Part shown: positions 7,089 through 31,879 of the stretch, in pieces
How the letters are laid out: each line of letters starts with the position of its first letter
How positions within the stretch are numbered: the first letter of the stretch is position 1
From: Nitrosarchaeum sp.
Lineage (GTDB): Archaea; Thermoproteota; Nitrososphaeria; Nitrososphaerales; Nitrosopumilaceae
Reading direction: 5' to 3'
Assembly (NCBI GenBank): GCA_018334095.1
Contig: JAGXTE010000001.1
Coordinates: 1-32,000 of the forward strand
DNA length: 32,000 bases
Notes under the pieces: model-generated
Told to the model about the DNA's origin: nothing
What the model saw: the letters and a program-made list of their open reading frames with translations, nothing else
The model's database searches: none
Translations under genes and position numbers: made by a program

Positions 7089-7109
7089 TAATTTTAAAAA
7101 ATGTGTATG

Positions 7110-7123
7110 AACTTAAGGGTTTA
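7110..7123 (-). promoter_or_regulatory. Promoter cassette copy 1 (gene-sense TAAACCCTTAAGTT)
   Basis: Putative BRE/TATA-like element. The CTTAAG core at 7112-7117 ends 23 nt before the TTG at 7088. Confidence 0.5.
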
Positions 7124-14525: not shown

Positions 14526-15365
14526 TCATTTCTCACAGCCAATCCCATCTTTGTCCCCATCAAATCTATGAGGATCACTTCCCATTACTCTAAAGTTCTT
14601 GTATGATATATCGCCACAATCTAAATCCGGTGGATATGGCAGGATACAAACATCAGGATATGATGGGTCACAATTTTCTTTAGAATCTAGAGTCTCTTTT
14701 GGAATCACTTTAGGAGTTTCTTCGGGACTAGTTTTTAGAGTCTCTTTAGGAATAATTACAGGAGTAACTATCAGAGTCTCTTCTTTACATCCATATTTTT
14801 GAGCCCAAGATTCCCCTGAAAACTCACTTGTATCACAATATTGAGTCAAGATGTTAGCATGGCCATTTGATAGCAGCATTTCATTTATCACGCCACCTTC
14901 GCAGTAAACTTTGCCAAGCATTCTACCATACTGATCAAAAGGTTGCAAGTCATCTTGATCAACCGTAATCATGCTGTCCACAGGGCAATGCATTACAGTA
15001 AACAGAGTTGCTTCTTGGAATCCTAGTTTGTCTTTTTCGGGAGTGTTAGTCAATGACAAACGAATTTTATGATTTGCAGTATAAATTGTATCTCCATCAA
15101 CTATCCTGGTTACTTTTTCTGTGATACAATTTCCTGTGCAGTTGATAACTGTAGGTTCTGCAAAATCTGGAATGCTACAACTGTTTCCAGTCCACAGTCC
15201 TCCCTTTGAGAGACAATCAATTTTTTCTTTATTCTCGTCAGGTCTTGTATCTCCTTGAAATGTTGGTCTGTTGTCTTGCCACGTAGTAGGTGAGATAGCT
15301 GCAAAGACTGCAACTGCACCAATAACTCCTACAACAATAATTGCGATGATGATTAGTGATTTCAT
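14526..15365 (-). CDS. Secreted staphylococcal-nuclease (SNase/thermonuclease) homologue with C-terminal Excalibur Ca-binding domain
   Basis: N-terminal TM/signal. SNase motifs are present (VTRIVDGDTIY..KIRL...NTPE, DQYGRMLGKVY, INEMLLSNGHA). The C-terminal DCGDISYKNFRVMGSDPHRFDGDKDGIGCE (14529-14621) matches Excalibur. 4-nt overlap with the upstream gene. Confidence 0.85.
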   Translation of the reverse strand: MKSLIIIAIIVVGVIGAVAVFAAISPTTWQDNRPTFQGDTRPDENKEKIDCLSKGGLWTGNSCSIPDFAEPTVINCTGNCITEKVTRIVDGDTIYTANHKIRLSLTNTPEKDKLGFQEATLFTVMHCPVDSMITVDQDDLQPFDQYGRMLGKVYCEGGVINEMLLSNGHANILTQYCDTSEFSGESWAQKYGCKEETLIVTPVIIPKETLKTSPEETPKVIPKETLDSKENCDPSYPDVCILPYPPDLDCGDISYKNFRVMGSDPHRFDGDKDGIGCEK

Positions 15366-15844
15366 TTATTTTTTCTCCAAATCATAAAAATTACAATACC
15401 ACAAATTGAAACTATAGTCACTACCAAAATTAACGGAACATAGTAAATAAAATCAGATGTTGTTATCTGAGATTCATCTAGTAATACGGGAGGAGTACAT
15501 ATACTGACACTTCGTTTATCTCCAAATGCATAAACAAGATATGATTTTCCAATTTCAAAATCACTATACTGGATTGAATTATGACCTGAAGTTACAGTTC
15601 CATCATCTGCATCCCCTTTTAGAATACGAGTAACATCAAAGGTAATTGTATCGTATTCCTCAGTTCCAGGATGGATTTCTGGATGTGGATTGTAAATGTC
15701 AATGACAGTTCCAACAAATACCACATCTGCCTGCTGAAAATTGTAATACTCTGCACCTAATGGAGGTGGGGCTCCACATGATGCGTGTGCAGAAATGGGT
15801 AGAAATACAATTCCAATAATAATTATCAAAAGTATAGTTTTCAT
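15362..15844 (-). CDS. Secreted, C-terminally membrane-anchored protein; possible OB/NTR (TIMP-like) module
   Basis: Signal peptide ending ISAHA|SCG. ADVVFVGTV, F.V.RILKG, GKSYLVYAF and S.C in the same order as prokaryotic TIMP/NTR-like proteins. C-terminal TM helix followed by RKNK. Confidence 0.6.
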   Translation of the reverse strand: MKTILLIIIIGIVFLPISAHASCGAPPPLGAEYYNFQQADVVFVGTVIDIYNPHPEIHPGTEEYDTITFDVTRILKGDADDGTVTSGHNSIQYSDFEIGKSYLVYAFGDKRSVSICTPPVLLDESQITTSDFIYYVPLILVVTIVSICGIVIFMIWRKNK

Positions 15845-15850
15845 TTTCTC

Positions 15851-16588
15851 CTAGTTACAAAAGCCTATACATGATTCTAGTGTATCAAATGGAACAGAAC
15901 CACCACATCCTCCCCATGTAAAAGATTTGCAAGAACGAGATTCCCAATCAAAATAATATTTTTCTATCGATGCTTTGCAGACCCCAGTTTCAGGTACTTG
16001 ATAGCAATGCCTAGAACTTTCAGATTGATTTACCATTAATGCCCATCCCCTTTCAAATAATTTTAAAACAGAATCAGGTTTTACACATGTAAAATGACCA
16101 TTAGTCGATTTTACAACTAGTACTAATTCATCTCTACACTCAATGTCACTGTATAGAACTCCCAACTTGAATTGCTTTAGTGGTGAGACAACAAAGGTTT
16201 CACAGTTATCAGTTCTTTCTGTTGCTTCAGGCCAGTGAGCAAAAATAATTTCTATCTTTTCAGGACTCTTTGACTCAAATGATGCATAGTAAAAACAATC
16301 ATCAGTTGTTGCATTCGCATCTACCTCTTCTCCATTAATTAAAACAAATAGTTGACCACCTATCGGGTATACTATTGGGGCCTTGAGATCAAGGGTTGCA
16401 TTTTCTCCCAGATCAAAAATCACAGAGGCAGAAGCGTGATCAAAAGATGCAGAGTTTATGTTTTCTCCAGTATAGTAAACTTTTCTCACATCTTTTTCAA
16501 GATACATGAATATTTCTTCGGCATGAGATGTTTGAATTATGCTTGCAAATGCGATTATTCCAAGTCCTATAATGATTAACGATTTCAC
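15851..16588 (-). CDS. Secreted protein with C-terminal Kunitz/BPTI serine-protease-inhibitor domain
   Basis: Signal peptide; GTG start. The C-terminal 50 aa are CYQVPETGVCKASIEKYYFDWESRSCKSFTWGGCGGSVPFDTLESCIGFC, with Cys spacing 8-15-7-11-3 (BPTI is 8-15-7-12-3). GxCKA (P1 Lys), YYF and WGGC are conserved. Confidence 0.85.
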   Translation of the reverse strand: MKSLIIIGLGIIAFASIIQTSHAEEIFMYLEKDVRKVYYTGENINSASFDHASASVIFDLGENATLDLKAPIVYPIGGQLFVLINGEEVDANATTDDCFYYASFESKSPEKIEIIFAHWPEATERTDNCETFVVSPLKQFKLGVLYSDIECRDELVLVVKSTNGHFTCVKPDSVLKLFERGWALMVNQSESSRHCYQVPETGVCKASIEKYYFDWESRSCKSFTWGGCGGSVPFDTLESCIGFCN

Positions 16589-16609
16589 ATAAAATTTAAC
16601 AAAAGTATG

Positions 16610-16623
16610 AACTTAAAGATTTA
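16610..16623 (-). promoter_or_regulatory. Promoter cassette copy 2 (gene-sense TAAATCTTTAAGTT)
   Basis: The core ends 23 nt before the GTG at 16588. It presumably drives the three-gene operon 16588->14526. Confidence 0.5.
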
Positions 16624-17012: not shown

Positions 17013-17177
17013 CTAATGTTTGGGTTTTGCTTTATGTTTGGCTAGTTCATCTTTTAATGCATTGATTCTTTTTTCTAATTTATCCACTCTTCGATCATCT
17101 GCATCTGCTCTTTTTTCTAATTTTGCCAATCTTCGTTCTTGTTGTTGTTCATGTTGTTTATTGGTTAATTTTGCCAT
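17013..17177 (-). CDS. 54-aa coiled-coil micro-protein (below the ORF-track cutoff)
   Basis: Hand-translated: MAKLTNKQHEQQQERRLAKLEKRADADDRRVDKLEKRINALKDELAKHKAKPKH. The ATG lies 24 nt downstream of promoter cassette copy 3. Confidence 0.5.
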   Translation of the reverse strand: MAKLTNKQHEQQQERRLAKLEKRADADDRRVDKLEKRINALKDELAKHKAKPKH

Positions 17178-17199
17178 GGGTTAGATAGAATTTTTTATG

Positions 17200-17213
17200 A
17201 ACTTAAGGATTTA
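17200..17213 (-). promoter_or_regulatory. Promoter cassette copy 3 (gene-sense TAAATCCTTAAGTT)
   Basis: Exact 14-mer. The CTTAAG core at 17202-17207 ends 24 nt before the ATG at 17177. Confidence 0.5.
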
Positions 17214-17284: not shown

Positions 17285-18127
17285 TTAAGGTTCAATTCTT
17301 GCACATTCTGCTAATGCAGTAATAGAGCCTTCTCCAGATGGAGAATATGCATTAACAGACCAAGCAGGTAATCCTTCAAAGATAGTGCTTGATTCACCAG
17401 ATATGTTAACTCTGGGATCTGTTGTTCTATATCCTCCACCAACAACCATTTCACCTGATAGACATGGTGCATAGGATGATCTAAATGGGGTTTCAGCAGA
17501 AAAATCTGTTGTTTGACCAGATCGTTCTACTACTATCAATCTTCCGCCAGAACCGGTACCGACATCATCAGGTTCACATAATACACTTCCATCAGAATTG
17601 ATTTGTCTAATTGAAGAACCTACAGGACAGTTTTCATTCACGCGTGTCTGTAGTAGAGCATCAGCTGTTGCTCTTGATGTTGCTTCGTTGTCGATGTTGG
17701 ATTGTAGTTGTGTATCAGCTGCTTGTAGTTCTGTGAAAATATCAAAGAAAGAGTCAATCTGAGATTGCTGAGACTCATCACTTGCTTGTAGTTCTGTGAA
17801 AATATCAAAGAAAGAGTCAATCTGAGATTGCTGTGCATCATTGGTTGTCTGCAATTCTGTGAAAATATCAAAAAATGAATCTACTGTAAACACATCAAAG
17901 AACACATCAAAGAAACTGTCAGCTTGTGGATTTGGCTGATTTTCATTAATCAGAGAAAGTAATTCACATTCTTTTGAATACTTTAGTGGGTCTTTTTTTT
18001 CAAACTCTTTGGTACACTCTTTTTGGAGTTTAGTTGGCTTGTCTGCTGCAAATGCATTGCCAATAAGTGGACTGGAAATCAGAATAGTAGAAATTGCCAA
18101 AAATAACAAAAGACTGGATTTATTCAA
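17285..18127 (-). CDS. Secreted protein with DSFFDIFTELQ tandem repeats and a Cys-containing C-terminal globular domain
   Basis: Signal peptide (LISSPLIGNAFA|A). Three 21-aa repeats plus degenerate copies. C-terminal CPVGSSIRQINSDGSVLC...VVGGGY...AECA. The TTG start is supported by CTTTAATT ending 24 nt upstream. Confidence 0.7.
   Translation of the reverse strand: MNKSSLLLFLAISTILISSPLIGNAFAADKPTKLQKECTKEFEKKDPLKYSKECELLSLINENQPNPQADSFFDVFFDVFTVDSFFDIFTELQTTNDAQQSQIDSFFDIFTELQASDESQQSQIDSFFDIFTELQAADTQLQSNIDNEATSRATADALLQTRVNENCPVGSSIRQINSDGSVLCEPDDVGTGSGGRLIVVERSGQTTDFSAETPFRSSYAPCLSGEMVVGGGYRTTDPRVNISGESSTIFEGLPAWSVNAYSPSGEGSITALAECARIEP
17723..17920 (-). repeat. 63-bp coding tandem repeat (3 units plus degenerate flanking copies)
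   Basis: cttgtagttctgtgaaaatatcaaagaaagagtcaatctgagattgctg recurs with a 63-nt period (17722, 17785, about 17848). Confidence 0.85.
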
Positions 18128-19436: not shown

Positions 19437-19982
19437 CTAGACCTTTACGTTCTTTTTCAGATCATAACCTGCCTTTACTGGTGCTTCACTAGAGCCAATT
19501 GGCTGGTACTTGAACTCTATCTTTGAAAAGTTCAAAGATAATTGTTCTGTTGGTTGTTCCCCAGAGCTGCCTTGTGACTGATAGCTTGAAACTAGGACAT
19601 CGCTCAACACTATGTCGAGATAGCATTGTGATTCTCGTCCTTCACCTGCAACACATAGTTGTAAAGTTACGTCTTTGATGTGTTTGCCAGTAACTACATG
19701 CTCAAACAATTTTGGTGATGCCTTGCTGGCAGATGAAGTAAAACTAAAGTCACTAATTGAGACCTTACCTGCACCGCCTCCACCAGAAGTTGCGGATGAT
19801 TGTGATGCACCCCAGCTAAACGATTCGATTTCTATCCATCCTTTGTGTTTGTCATCTGTCGACTCGCCCGGAACACCGTCGATCTTTAAGAAATAGTCAA
19901 CACTTGCTGCAGATGCACTTTGAGTTAGAAGTCCAATTGCAAAAACAGCCGTGATTCCTAAAAGAAGTATGTTCTTAATCAT
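19437..19982 (-). CDS. Hcp (type VI secretion tube protein, T6SS_HCP family) homologue with N-terminal Sec signal peptide
   Basis: The mature part shows full-length Hcp1-type similarity: VDYFLKIDGVPGESTDDKHKGWIEIESFSWGASQ...GGGGAGKVSISDFSFT...ASPKLFEHVVTGKHI...DVLVSSYQSQGSSGEQPTEQLSLNFSKIEFKYQP...GYDLKKNVKV. The start is revised from 20033 to ATG 19982 (MIKNILLLGITAVFAIGLLTQSASA|AS) because ATCCTTAAT ends 24 nt upstream. Confidence 0.85.
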   Translation of the reverse strand: MIKNILLLGITAVFAIGLLTQSASAASVDYFLKIDGVPGESTDDKHKGWIEIESFSWGASQSSATSGGGGAGKVSISDFSFTSSASKASPKLFEHVVTGKHIKDVTLQLCVAGEGRESQCYLDIVLSDVLVSSYQSQGSSGEQPTEQLSLNFSKIEFKYQPIGSSEAPVKAGYDLKKNVKV

Positions 19983-20004
19983 TGAGCCATGATACCTTTC
20001 GGAA

Positions 20005-20018
20005 TTATTAAGGATATC
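20005..20018 (-). promoter_or_regulatory. Promoter cassette variant (gene-sense GATATCCTTAATAA) for the Hcp-like gene
   Basis: The CTTAAT core at 20007-20012 ends 24 nt before ATG 19982. Confidence 0.4.
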
Positions 20019-20158
20019 CATAAAGTGTAACAAAAATTACGTTACAAGAATCTCCAGTAATCCTATTTTTGGAAATGTATTGAAATTCCTATGTCAATTG
20101 TTACTATGATTTTTTAAATTCATTAAACTAGAGAATGTAATATTCCATTTTGGAAAAA

Positions 20159-22680: not shown

Positions 22681-23763
22681 TTGAAAATCATAATCATACT
22701 GCTTGCAATAGGCTTTCTTCTGAGCATAAATTTTGTAAATGATTCGTTTGGATATAATGTTGAATACAAAATATTTGGCAGGCAGTTCTTTGACACTCCG
22801 CTTGTCTGCACATACAAGCCAACACTGGAACAGGATCCATATCTAAAACAGTGGGGAGTTGACAGACTAGAAGAGTCTGCAAGGCTTGCAGTACAGGATT
22901 GGCAATCTGCATTACAGATACATGAAGGAAAAAGCACAAAGGACAACTGGAAGATAAACTACAAACTGCTAACAGAAAAAGATGTGCAAAACAATCTTCA
23001 AAAAGATTGCAATGTCATAATTGAATTTCATCCAATGCCAACAGAGAAAAACGAGATGTATCGTGTACTTGGAGTAACATATTCAGATGATTCTGGTTTT
23101 AAATTAATTAAAATCTATTACAGAGACATACAAATCTGCAAAACAAGTGATGAGAAATACATCTACTATAGTGCATGTTATGGAGAAGACATGCTAATGT
23201 CAGAAAAACTTCGAACCACAATAACTCACGAGATGGGACATGCATTAGGATTGGGTCACTATCAAGCAGATGATCCTGAGGTAAATTCAGTCTGGGCAAA
23301 AGGACTAGTTGATGCAGAGTCAATAATGGCAGTATTCTCACATGAGAACTCAAAACTAATGAAGATAAAACCAATCGATATACAAAAGATAAAATCATTA
23401 TACACACCAAACGGATTCAAACCAATCAATACTGCAGTTTTAGAGACACCTCAACCAATCTTTGAGCCAATATCAGAAAAGCCAGCAGAGCAAGTCATAC
23501 CTTCATGGATAAAACAAAACGCAAAGTGGTGGTCAGATGAAACGATTACTGACAGAGATTTTGTAATTGGAATCCAATATCTGGTTCAAAAAGACATCAT
23601 CAAGGTTAGCGAAGTCAGAGAATCCACAGGAATATTCACCCAAGAGATACCATCGTGGGTCAGAAACAATGCAAAATGGTGGTCTGAAGACAAGATTACA
23701 GAGACTGACTTTATCAAGGGGATAGAACATCTAGTCAAAATTGGAATCATCAAGATAAACTAG
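22681..23763 (+). CDS. Secreted matrixin-like (M10/metzincin) zinc metalloprotease with two C-terminal 37-aa IPSW...WW repeats
   Basis: Signal peptide. HEMGHALGLGH at 23227-23259 (HExxHxxGxxH), with a downstream candidate Met-turn (SIMAV). C-terminal repeats at 23497-23607 and 23647-23757. Confidence 0.8.
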   Translation: MKIIIILLAIGFLLSINFVNDSFGYNVEYKIFGRQFFDTPLVCTYKPTLEQDPYLKQWGVDRLEESARLAVQDWQSALQIHEGKSTKDNWKINYKLLTEKDVQNNLQKDCNVIIEFHPMPTEKNEMYRVLGVTYSDDSGFKLIKIYYRDIQICKTSDEKYIYYSACYGEDMLMSEKLRTTITHEMGHALGLGHYQADDPEVNSVWAKGLVDAESIMAVFSHENSKLMKIKPIDIQKIKSLYTPNGFKPINTAVLETPQPIFEPISEKPAEQVIPSWIKQNAKWWSDETITDRDFVIGIQYLVQKDIIKVSEVRESTGIFTQEIPSWVRNNAKWWSEDKITETDFIKGIEHLVKIGIIKIN

Positions 23764-28106: not shown

Positions 28107-29336
28107 TTAGATTTTGATAATACCTGAAGTTACTAGAAATGCGATGCTCTTTGCAAATTCTTGATCTGTGATTTCACCTGCTACCCAGAATTTTGCATTA
28201 TTTTTGATCCATCCTGGAATTTCAGTCATAGATGAATCAGAATTAGGCAAAACAGGAATTACGATAATATTTTTTCGTATCATGTACTGCAAGGCATTTT
28301 TAAAATCATTATCCGTGATTTGGTTTTTAGACCACCAATCAGCATTGTTTCTGATCCATTGAGGAATTGCAATATCATCTTCAATATTTTTAGATTTGTA
28401 AATCGGTTTTTCAAGTGTTTCTGCAAGTACATCAAATGTTTTTGTTGCAATATTTGGGCCATATACAAACTTGGCAGTAAAAGTTCCAATCTCAGAGGTT
28501 GTAACGTCTTCAAATTTTATTCGGTTCAATGGTGTAACTGGAGAAATAGTTGTAGTGTTTGTCTTTCCAGATGGGTATGTAATTGTCAAAACTCCGGAAT
28601 TTAGTGAAATCTCAGGCACAACTATGTTGATTTCAACTGGATCCCCAGGATCATAGAGATTTTTGTCACTTCCCATGAAGATGTTGGTCTTTGCGTTTAC
28701 ACTTGATGCAGTAAATGGAACGTCAACTTCTACTGAATAATATTTTGCAACAATGTGATAAGTTCCAGAAGGATTGTGTTTTAACAAGTTATCCATTGAA
28801 AAATTTTCTACGATATTTGCTTGTGATACTTTGGTTTTATATTCCTCAACTAGTTTTGCAGGAGAGCCATTATCATCTAAAATTTTTACATGTAAAGTTT
28901 CAGCTTTTGCTGCACTTGGCTCGTAATAGTTTGTAGAGAAAGTTATGATTGCTTTATCAAATTTACCGTACGTATCTTTGTCAGTGGTAATTTTCACTTC
29001 CAACGGTTCAACAAAAACGCCAACTGTTTTTTGAATGTCTTTGTAATTGTACTGTATTGTCCAATTACCAAACTGATTATCAAATGCCGTTCGAATAATG
29101 TTGTGTGTTGCCTTTGAAGCTTGTAAGCTTGGAAGAGAGCCAGTAATTATTTTGCCATCAGGTTGAGTTGCATTCCATTCAACTGTACCGCCTACATATC
29201 TGTCAACAACTACAAAAACAGTAATCCAATCATTAGGACCAAACACCTCCATTTTAGGAGTTGCTATAATTTCAGCGCCATATGCAACAGGAATTAGACT
29301 AAATGAGAAAAATACCAATGCGATAAATAACTTCAT
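28107..29336 (-). CDS. Secreted multi-beta-sandwich protein with two C-terminal 37-aa IP.W...W repeats
   Basis: Signal peptide (SLIPVAYG|A). Two DK(D/N)xY...D...I signatures typical of Ig/MG-like sandwiches. C-terminal repeats at 28257-28367 and 28110-28220 are homologous to those of the metzincin. GAATTAAA ends 23 nt before the ATG. Confidence 0.7.
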   Translation of the reverse strand: MKLFIALVFFSFSLIPVAYGAEIIATPKMEVFGPNDWITVFVVVDRYVGGTVEWNATQPDGKIITGSLPSLQASKATHNIIRTAFDNQFGNWTIQYNYKDIQKTVGVFVEPLEVKITTDKDTYGKFDKAIITFSTNYYEPSAAKAETLHVKILDDNGSPAKLVEEYKTKVSQANIVENFSMDNLLKHNPSGTYHIVAKYYSVEVDVPFTASSVNAKTNIFMGSDKNLYDPGDPVEINIVVPEISLNSGVLTITYPSGKTNTTTISPVTPLNRIKFEDVTTSEIGTFTAKFVYGPNIATKTFDVLAETLEKPIYKSKNIEDDIAIPQWIRNNADWWSKNQITDNDFKNALQYMIRKNIIVIPVLPNSDSSMTEIPGWIKNNAKFWVAGEITDQEFAKSIAFLVTSGIIKI

Positions 29337-30950: not shown

Positions 30951-31763
30951 TCAGAGTTTTATTTTAAATCCAGATTTTTGGCTTGCAAGCATAATACTCA
31001 TGGTAGCAACTGCAAGTATCACAATTGACATGACTCCAAATTCGGGCACGATAGACGTTCCAATTATTGTAAGCAGTTTTGCATCATTTGGCAATACAAC
31101 AGTTACAGTAGAGATGTCATTTTCATTTGTCTCATCAAAGTCGGTGATCTTTTTTCCATCAATAAAAATTACAAACGGACCGTCAATTAGATCAGATGGC
31201 AATTTAATTTTCAGTGTTCCATCGTCGGATTTAGCATTTCCAACTATCTCAAACGTGATTGATTTTTGGCCCTCATCAATTGTGCTCACAGCAAGAAGTC
31301 TATCAGAAAGATATTCCACGTTAAAGGTTGTAGTGCCATCACCTATTGTCTTTCCAACTTGATTGATTGTTTTTGTTCCATCTGTAACAAAGACGGTTCC
31401 AACCATCCAAGGGTGAATTAGGCAATAGTACGGGAATTGACCAGTTTGGGTAAAAGTAAATTTGTATGATTGCCCAGGAGAGATAAAATTTGAACCGCCA
31501 AAAATACCATCAGGTCCATCCTCGACAGTTCCCGATGTAATGGTATGTTTTGCAGTATCTGCGTTTTGCCATACAACAGTATCACCAACAGAGATATCAA
31601 TGTCACCAGATGCTAATCCAGATTTTTCATTTTGCCAAAAATATGGAGCGTCAGGACTTGCAGAGCCAGTCGGCATGTTGATGTCATAACTTGTCGCAAA
31701 AGCTACACTACTAAAGGATACAGAAGATATTATTAAAACAAAGATCAAAAAAAGAATATTCAT
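30951..31763 (-). CDS. Blue (type-1) copper cupredoxin with PEFG-type C-terminal sorting signal
   Basis: Signal peptide MNILFLIFVLIISSVSFSSVAFA. Candidate copper ligands are H (AKHTITSG) and C-x2-H-x2-M (YYCLIHPWM, amicyanin-like). The C-terminus is PEFG + TM helix + basic tail (30954-31046). The start is set at ATG 31763 (CTTTAA ends 22 nt upstream) rather than 31817. Confidence 0.8.
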   Translation of the reverse strand: MNILFLIFVLIISSVSFSSVAFATSYDINMPTGSASPDAPYFWQNEKSGLASGDIDISVGDTVVWQNADTAKHTITSGTVEDGPDGIFGGSNFISPGQSYKFTFTQTGQFPYYCLIHPWMVGTVFVTDGTKTINQVGKTIGDGTTTFNVEYLSDRLLAVSTIDEGQKSITFEIVGNAKSDDGTLKIKLPSDLIDGPFVIFIDGKKITDFDETNENDISTVTVVLPNDAKLLTIIGTSIVPEFGVMSIVILAVATMSIMLASQKSGFKIKL

Positions 31764-31879
31764 ACTAGACAAAAGTTGTTTTAAGTTAAAGAGATTACGG
31801 TGTATAAAATCAATCACATTTTTTCAATTTGAAATAAAAAATATCGATATTTATTAGATTGAATAAGGTTTAAAATTTA

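Follow-up and report, generated by a model that had tools for sequence, protein, structure and literature searches.

A 32,000-nucleotide stretch of Nitrosarchaeum sp. DNA (positions 1 to 32,000 of the forward strand of contig JAGXTE010000001.1, GenBank assembly GCA_018334095.1), hereafter called the window, was analyzed with a focus on three adjacent minus-strand genes. They encode a Kunitz-domain protein (KUN), a membrane-anchored protein with a predicted TIMP/NTR-type barrel (MID), and a nuclease that joins an SNase core to an Excalibur-like module (NUC). The genes probably form one compact operon for exported proteins. The explanation that we favor, with a probability of about 0.6, is that KUN, MID, and NUC are independently shuffled cassettes of a variable exported-protein array in a subclade of Nitrosopumilaceae, and that their products serve in accessory protection or conditioning of the cell envelope. 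Feature coordinates are collected in Table 1, and homologous loci and proteins are cited by their working labels (L and P numbers).

The three open reading frames (ORFs) match the gene calls of the source contig. A Nitrosarchaeum sp. metagenome-assembled genome contig of 83,434 bp encodes proteins 100% identical to each of the three products, and additional homologues were found for KUN (26), MID (23), and NUC (>2,000); the three were therefore accepted as real genes. They are co-oriented, with 6 nt between KUN and MID and a 4-nt overlap (ATGA) between MID and NUC, and the coordinates and spacing given in an earlier first-pass annotation of the same DNA were confirmed. The guanine-cytosine content of the operon (~36%) is the same as that of its flanks. 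According to the source-contig gene calls, the gene past NUC is convergent and 480 nt away, so the unit ends at NUC.

Upstream of KUN, an 18-nt BRE/TATA-like motif, TAAATCTTTAAGTTCATA, was recognized by its recurrence. It overlaps the stop codon of an upstream 81-aa ORF, encloses the single promoter cassette that the first-pass annotation had placed at 16610-16623, and is the only recognizable promoter element ahead of KUN, the first gene. The window contains three exact copies of the 11-nt motif core, all on the minus strand, and the recurring exact motif reads (C/T)TTAAGTTCATA inside TAAATCnTTAAGTTCATA. Three of the four core copies (window plus L018, another Nitrosarchaeum contig) end 18-19 nt ahead of a start codon: two window copies precede KUN and a 54-aa ORF at 17013-17177, and the distance in L018 is 18 nt. 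The TTAAG core is centred ~26 nt before the GTG of KUN. Archaeal TATA boxes usually stand this far from the transcription start, and on this basis we infer a leaderless transcript from the motif upstream of KUN. TAAATCTTTAAGTTCATA would then act as a promoter, and the recurring core is a candidate strong leaderless promoter of Nitrosarchaeum. The motif scan of the window found no copy ahead of MID or NUC, both of which have GGAG a few nt upstream of the start codon. Since the motif stands ahead of KUN only, a single transcript fits both it and the gene spacing, and the three genes are probably co-transcribed. Scans for sigma-70 promoters and intrinsic terminators were not above shuffled controls and are uninformative for an archaeon, and an Rfam search of the window returned no RNA family.

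Signal peptides were assessed by eye. KUN and MID carry classical AxA-type signal peptides, and NUC starts with a 22-residue hydrophobic segment that could be either a signal peptide or an uncleaved anchor. The first-pass annotation had given signal peptides to all three products; this stood for KUN and MID, and for NUC it was widened to signal or anchor. Export of all three proteins is plausible.

Conservation of the gene order was examined at the 11 other non-redundant MID loci (L001, which is on the same contig as L006, L004, L005, and L007-L014). The KUN-MID-NUC trio was found at none of them (0/11). Within this set, a Kunitz gene was near MID only in L014, where it is convergent, and a NUC homologue only in L008, 3 kb off and on the opposite strand. 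In L018/L019, the gene of the closest NUC homologue (82% identity) comes after one for an unrelated 186-aa membrane protein, again with a 4-nt overlap. The Kunitz homologues P0027 and P0035 were located in other contexts, P0035 between two serpin genes. At L021:1886-8602, in a Nitrosopumilus contig, a 313-aa Kunitz homologue is flanked by serpins of 413 and 510 aa within 7 kb, which makes a protease-inhibitor cluster. KUN, MID, and NUC as an obligate functional trio are not supported by these observations, and the earlier proposal of a dedicated functional unit was given up.

That proposal had been worded as a self-protecting module for extracellular DNA scavenging or matrix remodelling, in which the inhibitors shield NUC from environmental proteases. 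The tight packing behind one promoter-like motif, the predicted export of all three products, and the recurrence of inhibitors and nucleases in the same arrays (see below) would suit such a module, but the trio is confined to the window among the MID loci and the closest NUC homologues have neither a KUN nor a MID partner. Because more than 2,000 relatives of NUC stand against ~24 of MID, the nuclease family works without MID, and the ten or more conserved Cys of NUC suggest intrinsic stabilization. We consider a nuclease shielded by its own inhibitors improbable.

At every locus, MID belongs to an array of 5-10 genes that all run in one direction, with a few nt of overlap or spacing between neighbors (for example, L008:1597-8255, L011:67-6902, and L007:496-7217). 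The content of the arrays is a mosaic of WING-49 proteins, MID, longer TIMP-like paralogues, about 12 unnamed families, serpins, and Kunitz genes. A serpin gene adjoins MID in L009 and L013, Kunitz genes are present in the window and L014, nucleases are near MID in L008 and L014, and extra TIMP-like paralogues occur in L008, L010, L011, and L013, some arrays having at least two. As a rough enrichment estimate, a Kunitz or serpin gene was located within 5 kb in 4 of 12 loci and a nuclease in 3 of 12. An overlap of 4 nt usually joins MID to the next gene, which belongs to a different family at nearly every locus. A leader of the MKTR type (MKTR-x-L-I-I; signal peptide or anchor) begins 47 of 85 array products.

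Conservation of this leader extends to the DNA, synonymous sites included. Between unrelated families, identity was 80% at nt 1-12, 48% at nt 13-30, 35% at nt 31-60, and 28% beyond; across array genes, identity at third codon positions was 49% in the first 30 nt versus 30% later. Codon choice also differed: TTG was used for 52% of Leu in the leader versus 24% elsewhere (p = 7e-6), and ACT for 68% of Thr versus 34% (p = 3e-5). When L004:2491-2510 was compared with L005:3197-3632, the two related arrays differed by exactly one inserted 139-aa gene, running from the MID stop to the start of the next gene, with the breakpoints at the gene boundaries. Because of the leader conservation and this one-gene difference, exchange of cassettes at gene boundaries is taken as a lead. 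A wider proposal is that Nitrosopumilaceae have an undescribed system in which arrays swap single-gene cassettes via recombination at the ~30-nt leader, gaaaATGAAAACTAGAnTTTTGATAATT, yielding a variable surface and secreted repertoire; among its members would be nucleases, inhibitors of the Kunitz and serpin types, and the first TIMP homologues from archaea. It is offered as a tentative idea, rather unlikely as it stands.

Two other kinds of genes were observed at the arrays. Cytoplasmic proteins with a CDC48 N-terminal domain (224 and 378-403 aa) are encoded at the edge of arrays or inside them (L012:2742-4646, L013:2814-3488, and L005:4992-6203). On a 2-Mb contig, a solo Cas1 gene (L007:9300-10349) is located ~3 kb downstream of the array, which may be a casposon or a coincidence.

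The C-terminal domain of KUN scored 44.9 bits with Kunitz_BPTI (PF00014; cut-off 21, E = 1.4e-11, profile positions 2-52 of 53). Its six Cys are spaced 8/15/7/11/3, so that, compared with the Kunitz/BPTI framework C-8-C-15-C-7-C-12-C-3-C, the C4-C5 spacing is one residue shorter. The reactive site reads GVC-K-A with Lys at P1, and CKA was kept in 9 of 10 inspected homologues carrying the Kunitz domain. KUN thus resembles BPTI in its six-Cys framework, C-K-A loop, P1 Lys, and above-threshold Pfam score, and differs from it in having an archaeal host and in placing the Kunitz domain at the extreme C-terminus, behind a beta-sandwich and WING-49. With its Kunitz domain intact, soluble KUN would block trypsin-like serine proteases by the standard substrate-like mechanism.

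WING-49, a small alpha/beta module with two Cys, matched NCBIfam NF058652 (E = 4.5e-20). It was found in 10 of 82 array proteins, where it corresponds to the BLAST family FAM0. An AlphaFold2 (AF2) model of KUN residues 24-190, with a mean predicted local distance difference test score (pLDDT) of 81, showed a beta-sandwich followed by a small alpha/beta unit, and a fold search with the N-terminal part gave only generic beta-sandwich matches in the PDB, none at E <= 1e-3. KUN homologues keep the C-terminal pair of WING-49 and Kunitz domains and differ in their N-terminal domains, and two homologues have the KUN N-terminus and no Kunitz domain. As the pair is joined to varied N-termini and the Kunitz domain is sometimes missing, the comparison indicates domain shuffling in the KUN family. 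A beta-sandwich segment common to KUN-family proteins was also observed in a window protein (30951-31817, minus strand) that ends in a sorting signal of the PEFG-plus-transmembrane type. Literature searches found no paper mentioning WING-49; a search for Kunitz with Nitrosopumilus or Thaumarchaeota gave nothing relevant, and no paper was found on Kunitz domains in ammonia-oxidizing archaea.

Direct searches with MID gave no Pfam match at E <= 1, no NCBIfam match, and no profile match among PDB sequences. An AF2 model was built from 24 homologues (pLDDT 75) and compared with the PDB by Foldseek. The top 50 matches were all TIMP-1/2/3 or NTR modules (PCOLCE, complement C3/C5, agrin NtA, and meteorin among the latter), with a best E of 7.5e-5 and template modeling scores up to 0.57, normalized on N-TIMP. 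The model and the fold search together predict an OB-type barrel of five strands, as in the N-domain of TIMP. When 1.84 billion representative proteins were searched with a profile, 710 relatives were collected at E <= 1e-3, among them canonical CSC-type proteins of Nitrosopumilaceae and a protein from Paenibacillus; of 67 relatives scanned, 30 matched Pfam TIMP (PF00965; best E = 1.3e-9). When the MID alignment was compared with that of the distant relatives by hhalign, the probability was 99.9% (E = 2.8e-34). The distant relatives aligned in turn with human N-TIMP-1 at 91.6%, with Cys1, Cys3, Cys70, and Cys99 in register; the N-TIMP-1 sequence was entered by hand, and this alignment counts as a lead and not as standard evidence. 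The distant relatives share a signal peptide that ends in AxA and is followed by C-S-C-x-x-P-P, the motifs AVFxGxV, VTFxVxxVWKG, SASCGY, YLVYA, and LCxRT, and a C-terminal transmembrane helix. As the Foldseek matches, the PF00965-matching relatives, and hhalign agree, MID is a divergent prokaryotic TIMP/NTR homologue, its sequence homology being transitive only.

The MID subfamily departs from these relatives at the residues that matter for inhibition. In 24 of 24 members the predicted cleavage site reads AxA followed by S-C, so that the equivalent of Cys1 is missing and the predicted mature N-terminus is Ser. SGGY stands in place of SCGY, and the Cys70 equivalent is gone; C23 and C116, the equivalents of Cys3 and Cys99, are invariant. 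The equivalents of Cys1 and Cys70, which pair in one TIMP disulfide, are lost together. Their joint loss supports a disulfide arrangement of the TIMP type and speaks against zinc being chelated in the canonical way through the alpha-amine of Cys1, and TIMP-style chelation by MID is doubtful. C-terminally anchored in the membrane, MID would still bind a partner at the cell surface, in a mode different from zinc chelation through the Cys1 alpha-amine; the partner could be a metzincin such as the one encoded 7 kb away.

This metzincin is the only candidate endogenous TIMP target in the window. Its C-terminal twin repeat, IPSW(I/V)(K/R)xNAKWWS...ITDxDF, also occurs in the protein at 28107-29336 and in P0190, a TIMP-like protein of canonical CSC type and of Nitrosopumilaceae type; its presence in P0190 suggests that P0190 and the metzincin share a location. 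MID might accordingly regulate or inhibit an endogenous secreted metzincin, as in the TIMP-MMP, Listeria Mtz-Tim, and Pseudomonas AprA-AprI pairs, and its place between KUN and NUC would be incidental. A TIMP-metzincin relationship in these archaea is plausible because the metzincin is located in the same secretome-rich region and P0190 carries its twin repeat, and Listeria offers a precedent (PMC8235301). For MID itself we hold it unlikely: no protein with HExxHxxGxxH was found within ~5 kb of MID at the 11 other loci, the zinc-chelating Cys1 equivalent is missing, and the metzincin gene is on the opposite strand and not adjacent.

Another reading of MID gives it no inhibitory role. A His/acid-rich loop, NPHPEIHxGxEEYDTITFD (MID residues 50-80, window 15603-15697), is invariant in the subfamily together with H88; H54, H58, H88, E63, D65, and D70 are the same in all 24 sequences, and the canonical CSC relatives have no such loop. 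Metal or a partner may bind there. MID could then be a non-inhibitory NTR-type binding module of the cell surface, or a metal-binding protein using the NPHPEIHxGxEEYD loop and H88, and many of its Foldseek NTR matches (complement C3/C5, PCOLCE, agrin NtA, and meteorin) are indeed non-inhibitory. The loop was modelled at low confidence (block pLDDT 65), however, and the neighbourhood of MID is enriched in bona fide inhibitors, so that we would not expect this reading to hold, despite the strict conservation.

The SNase domain of NUC scored 29.6 bits with PF00565 (cut-off 21), and phmmer aligned the protein with staphylococcal thermonuclease structures at E = 7e-8. In this alignment the equivalents of D21, R35, T41, E43, Y85, and R87 are present and that of D40 is Asn. 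The catalytic residues were conserved in 114-120 of 120 homologues, with Asn at the D40 position in 91 of them, and ten Cys were nearly invariant. The Excalibur profile (PF05901) is carried by many NUC homologues; in NUC it scored 19.6 bits, just under the cut-off of 22, and covered the last 14 of 36 profile positions only. The terminal DGDKDGIGCE is an exact DxDxDGxxCE, a motif kept in 104-113 of the 120 homologues. The protein therefore shares with staphylococcal nuclease/thermonuclease and Excalibur proteins the catalytic Arg/Glu/Arg/Tyr, the Ca ligands, DxDxDGxxCE, and a presumed extracellular location, and differs from staphylococcal nuclease in the Asn for D40, the at least ten conserved Cys, and the PKETL-repeat linker. 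It was far below the equivalog cut-offs of EcnA and NucI, and the NCBI name of the family is 'thermonuclease family protein'. Judged by these residues, NUC would be a disulfide-rich, Ca2+-dependent nuclease acting on extracellular nucleic acid. The window proteins at 22681-23763 and 28107-29336 were considered as NUC paralogues and rejected, as the BLAST link was indirect, via the N-terminal part of an L008 protein.

The domain assignments of the first-pass annotation thus held when checked: the Kunitz domain and the SNase core above threshold in profile hidden Markov model searches, the anchored OB/TIMP-like protein through its predicted fold and its relatives, and the Excalibur module by its exact motif with a profile score just under threshold.

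An anti-predator or anti-viral surface module had also been suggested, and the trio could likewise be a cassette for a secreted toxin, the nuclease being the effector. Such a role would draw on the predicted secretion of the nuclease, the variable and island-like arrays, the Hcp-like gene 4 kb upstream, and the solo Cas1 near the array in L007, but a PADLOC search gave no significant match to a defence family (best E = 1.3e-3, a generic SNase model), IMG/VR scans for MID, NUC, and KUN found no relatives, and no immunity-like gene follows the nuclease. The nuclease family is, besides, widespread and annotated as ordinary thermonuclease. With the synteny result added, a defence or toxin role is very improbable and this suggestion, too, was dropped.

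We return to the exported-protein arrays as the favored explanation. The arrays seem to gather, recurrently, inhibitors of three mechanistic classes (Kunitz, serpin, and TIMP-like) together with nucleases, and several relatives with MID arrays come from estuarine sediment metagenomes. The shared role would most likely be an accessory, strain-variable protection or conditioning of the cell envelope in protease- and DNA-rich sediment. Several points weigh against this explanation. The association of inhibitor classes comes from 12 loci picked for their longer contigs and is a rough estimate with no background frequency. Most array genes have no recognizable function, so that 'envelope protection' extrapolates from a minority. 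MID has no direct Pfam match and lacks the N-terminal Cys on which inhibition by TIMPs depends, and it may be no inhibitor. Co-transcription is read from the gene spacing and one motif, and the signal peptides from inspection by eye. Lastly, the contigs of several relatives are short, and the scans of genome collections and metagenomes for MID used two peptide patterns only and gave 1 and 3 true loci, a weak census, so that further trios could have been missed.

Ecotin, bacterial and archaeal serpins, and Pseudomonas AprI are periplasmic or surface inhibitors that shield the bacterial envelope from foreign proteases. By analogy, the operon may work in the same way, its exported inhibitors protecting the cell's own surface proteins; it differs in its protein families and in its mosaic multi-gene arrays. 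AprI is also cited in the report on Listeria monocytogenes Mtz-Tim (PMC8235301), which is the closest described prokaryotic case to MID. Tim shares with MID a prokaryotic host, tethering to the membrane, a fold of the TIMP type, and a gene next to that of a secreted enzyme, and both genes follow a partner gene with no promoter of their own (PMC8235301). The likeness of Tim to TIMP is confined to predicted structure, its anchor is an N-terminal lipid, and its gene always accompanies that of a metzincin and is associated with phage (PMC8235301); MID differs in its sequence link to Pfam TIMP through intermediates, its C-terminal transmembrane anchor, its Kunitz and nuclease neighbors, a nearest metzincin 7 kb off, and the lack of a phage link. 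The authors of that report knew of no earlier record of bacterial TIMP-like proteins (PMC8235301), and a 2012 survey had listed the TIMP/netrin domain in some Eubacteria and as absent in Archaea (PMC3516229). A Kazal-type inhibitor was noted in a sponge-associated thaumarchaeon (PMC6697440).

The prokaryotic MID family resembles the N-domain of metazoan TIMPs (PF00965) in its predicted OB-type barrel. The wider family adds the signal peptide followed directly by C-x-C-x-x-P-P, the VWKG, SCGY, and LC motifs, and four aligned Cys, the alignment of these Cys with human N-TIMP-1 being, as above, a lead. MID itself, unlike metazoan TIMPs, has no Cys1 and Cys70 equivalents, a Ser at the predicted mature N-terminus, no C-terminal TIMP subdomain, a transmembrane anchor, and the subfamily-specific His-rich loop. 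Archaeal TIMP homologues and leader-bounded arrays appear to be undescribed in the searchable literature. All three genes belong to known families, as members or variants, and the novelty lies in an archaeal TIMP subfamily without Cys1 and in mosaic arrays bounded by the leader.

Table 1. Positions of the operon genes, their domains, and related elements in the window.
Feature	Position	Strand	Description
KUN	15851-16588	minus	245 aa, GTG start; signal peptide 1-23, beta-sandwich ~24-120, WING-49 136-183, Kunitz/BPTI 195-244
Kunitz/BPTI domain of KUN	15857-16006	minus	PF00014
WING-49 domain of KUN	16040-16183	minus	small alpha/beta module, two Cys
MID	15362-15844	minus	160 aa; signal peptide (predicted cleavage between AHA and SC), predicted TIMP/NTR-type beta-barrel ~22-125, C-terminal transmembrane helix then RKNK
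NUC	14526-15365	minus	279 aa; N-terminal hydrophobic signal/anchor, Cys-rich stretch, SNase 84-178, PKETL-repeat linker, Excalibur-type C-terminus 232-278
SNase catalytic core of NUC	14832-15116	minus	phmmer to thermonuclease structures, column conservation
PKETL-rich linker repeats	14681-14765		short, tandem-like, between SNase and Excalibur parts
Excalibur-like module	14532-14672	minus	ends in DGDKDGIGCE; four conserved Cys
Promoter-like motif TAAATCTTTAAGTTCATA	16606-16623	minus	18 nt, BRE/TATA-like; recurrence
Copies of the motif core	7106-7116, 16606-16616, 17196-17206	minus	exact match; further copy at L018:1216-1227
Secreted metzincin, outside the operon	22681-23763	plus	HEMGHALGLGH; Peptidase_M10 23.3 bits (cut-off 24)

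Three further minus-strand genes of the window were recorded. Two genes upstream of the operon, 17285-18127 encodes a secreted protein of 280 aa that has three DSFFDIFTELQ repeats and matched no family. The gene at 19437-20033 encodes an archaeal Hcp-like protein (T6SS_HCP, E = 4e-40), apparently with a signal-peptide-like segment ahead, and the product of 253-1563 has collagen triple-helix repeats and DUF7151.

Few microbes on Earth are as abundant as ammonia-oxidizing archaea, and to our knowledge the extracellular proteins of these archaea are almost unstudied. Beside secreted nucleases, they encode inhibitor folds that are usually deemed animal (Kunitz and TIMP/NTR, with serpin in relatives). 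The idea that the inhibitors of the operon shield its nuclease should be abandoned. An archaeal TIMP family linked by sequence was not reported in the 2012 survey (PMC3516229), and the loss of the Cys1-Cys70 pair in MID provides a natural test of the TIMP barrel without its zinc-chelating N-terminus. If the leader-bounded cassettes are indeed units of recombination, they would represent a new route to diversification of the archaeal surface and secretome.

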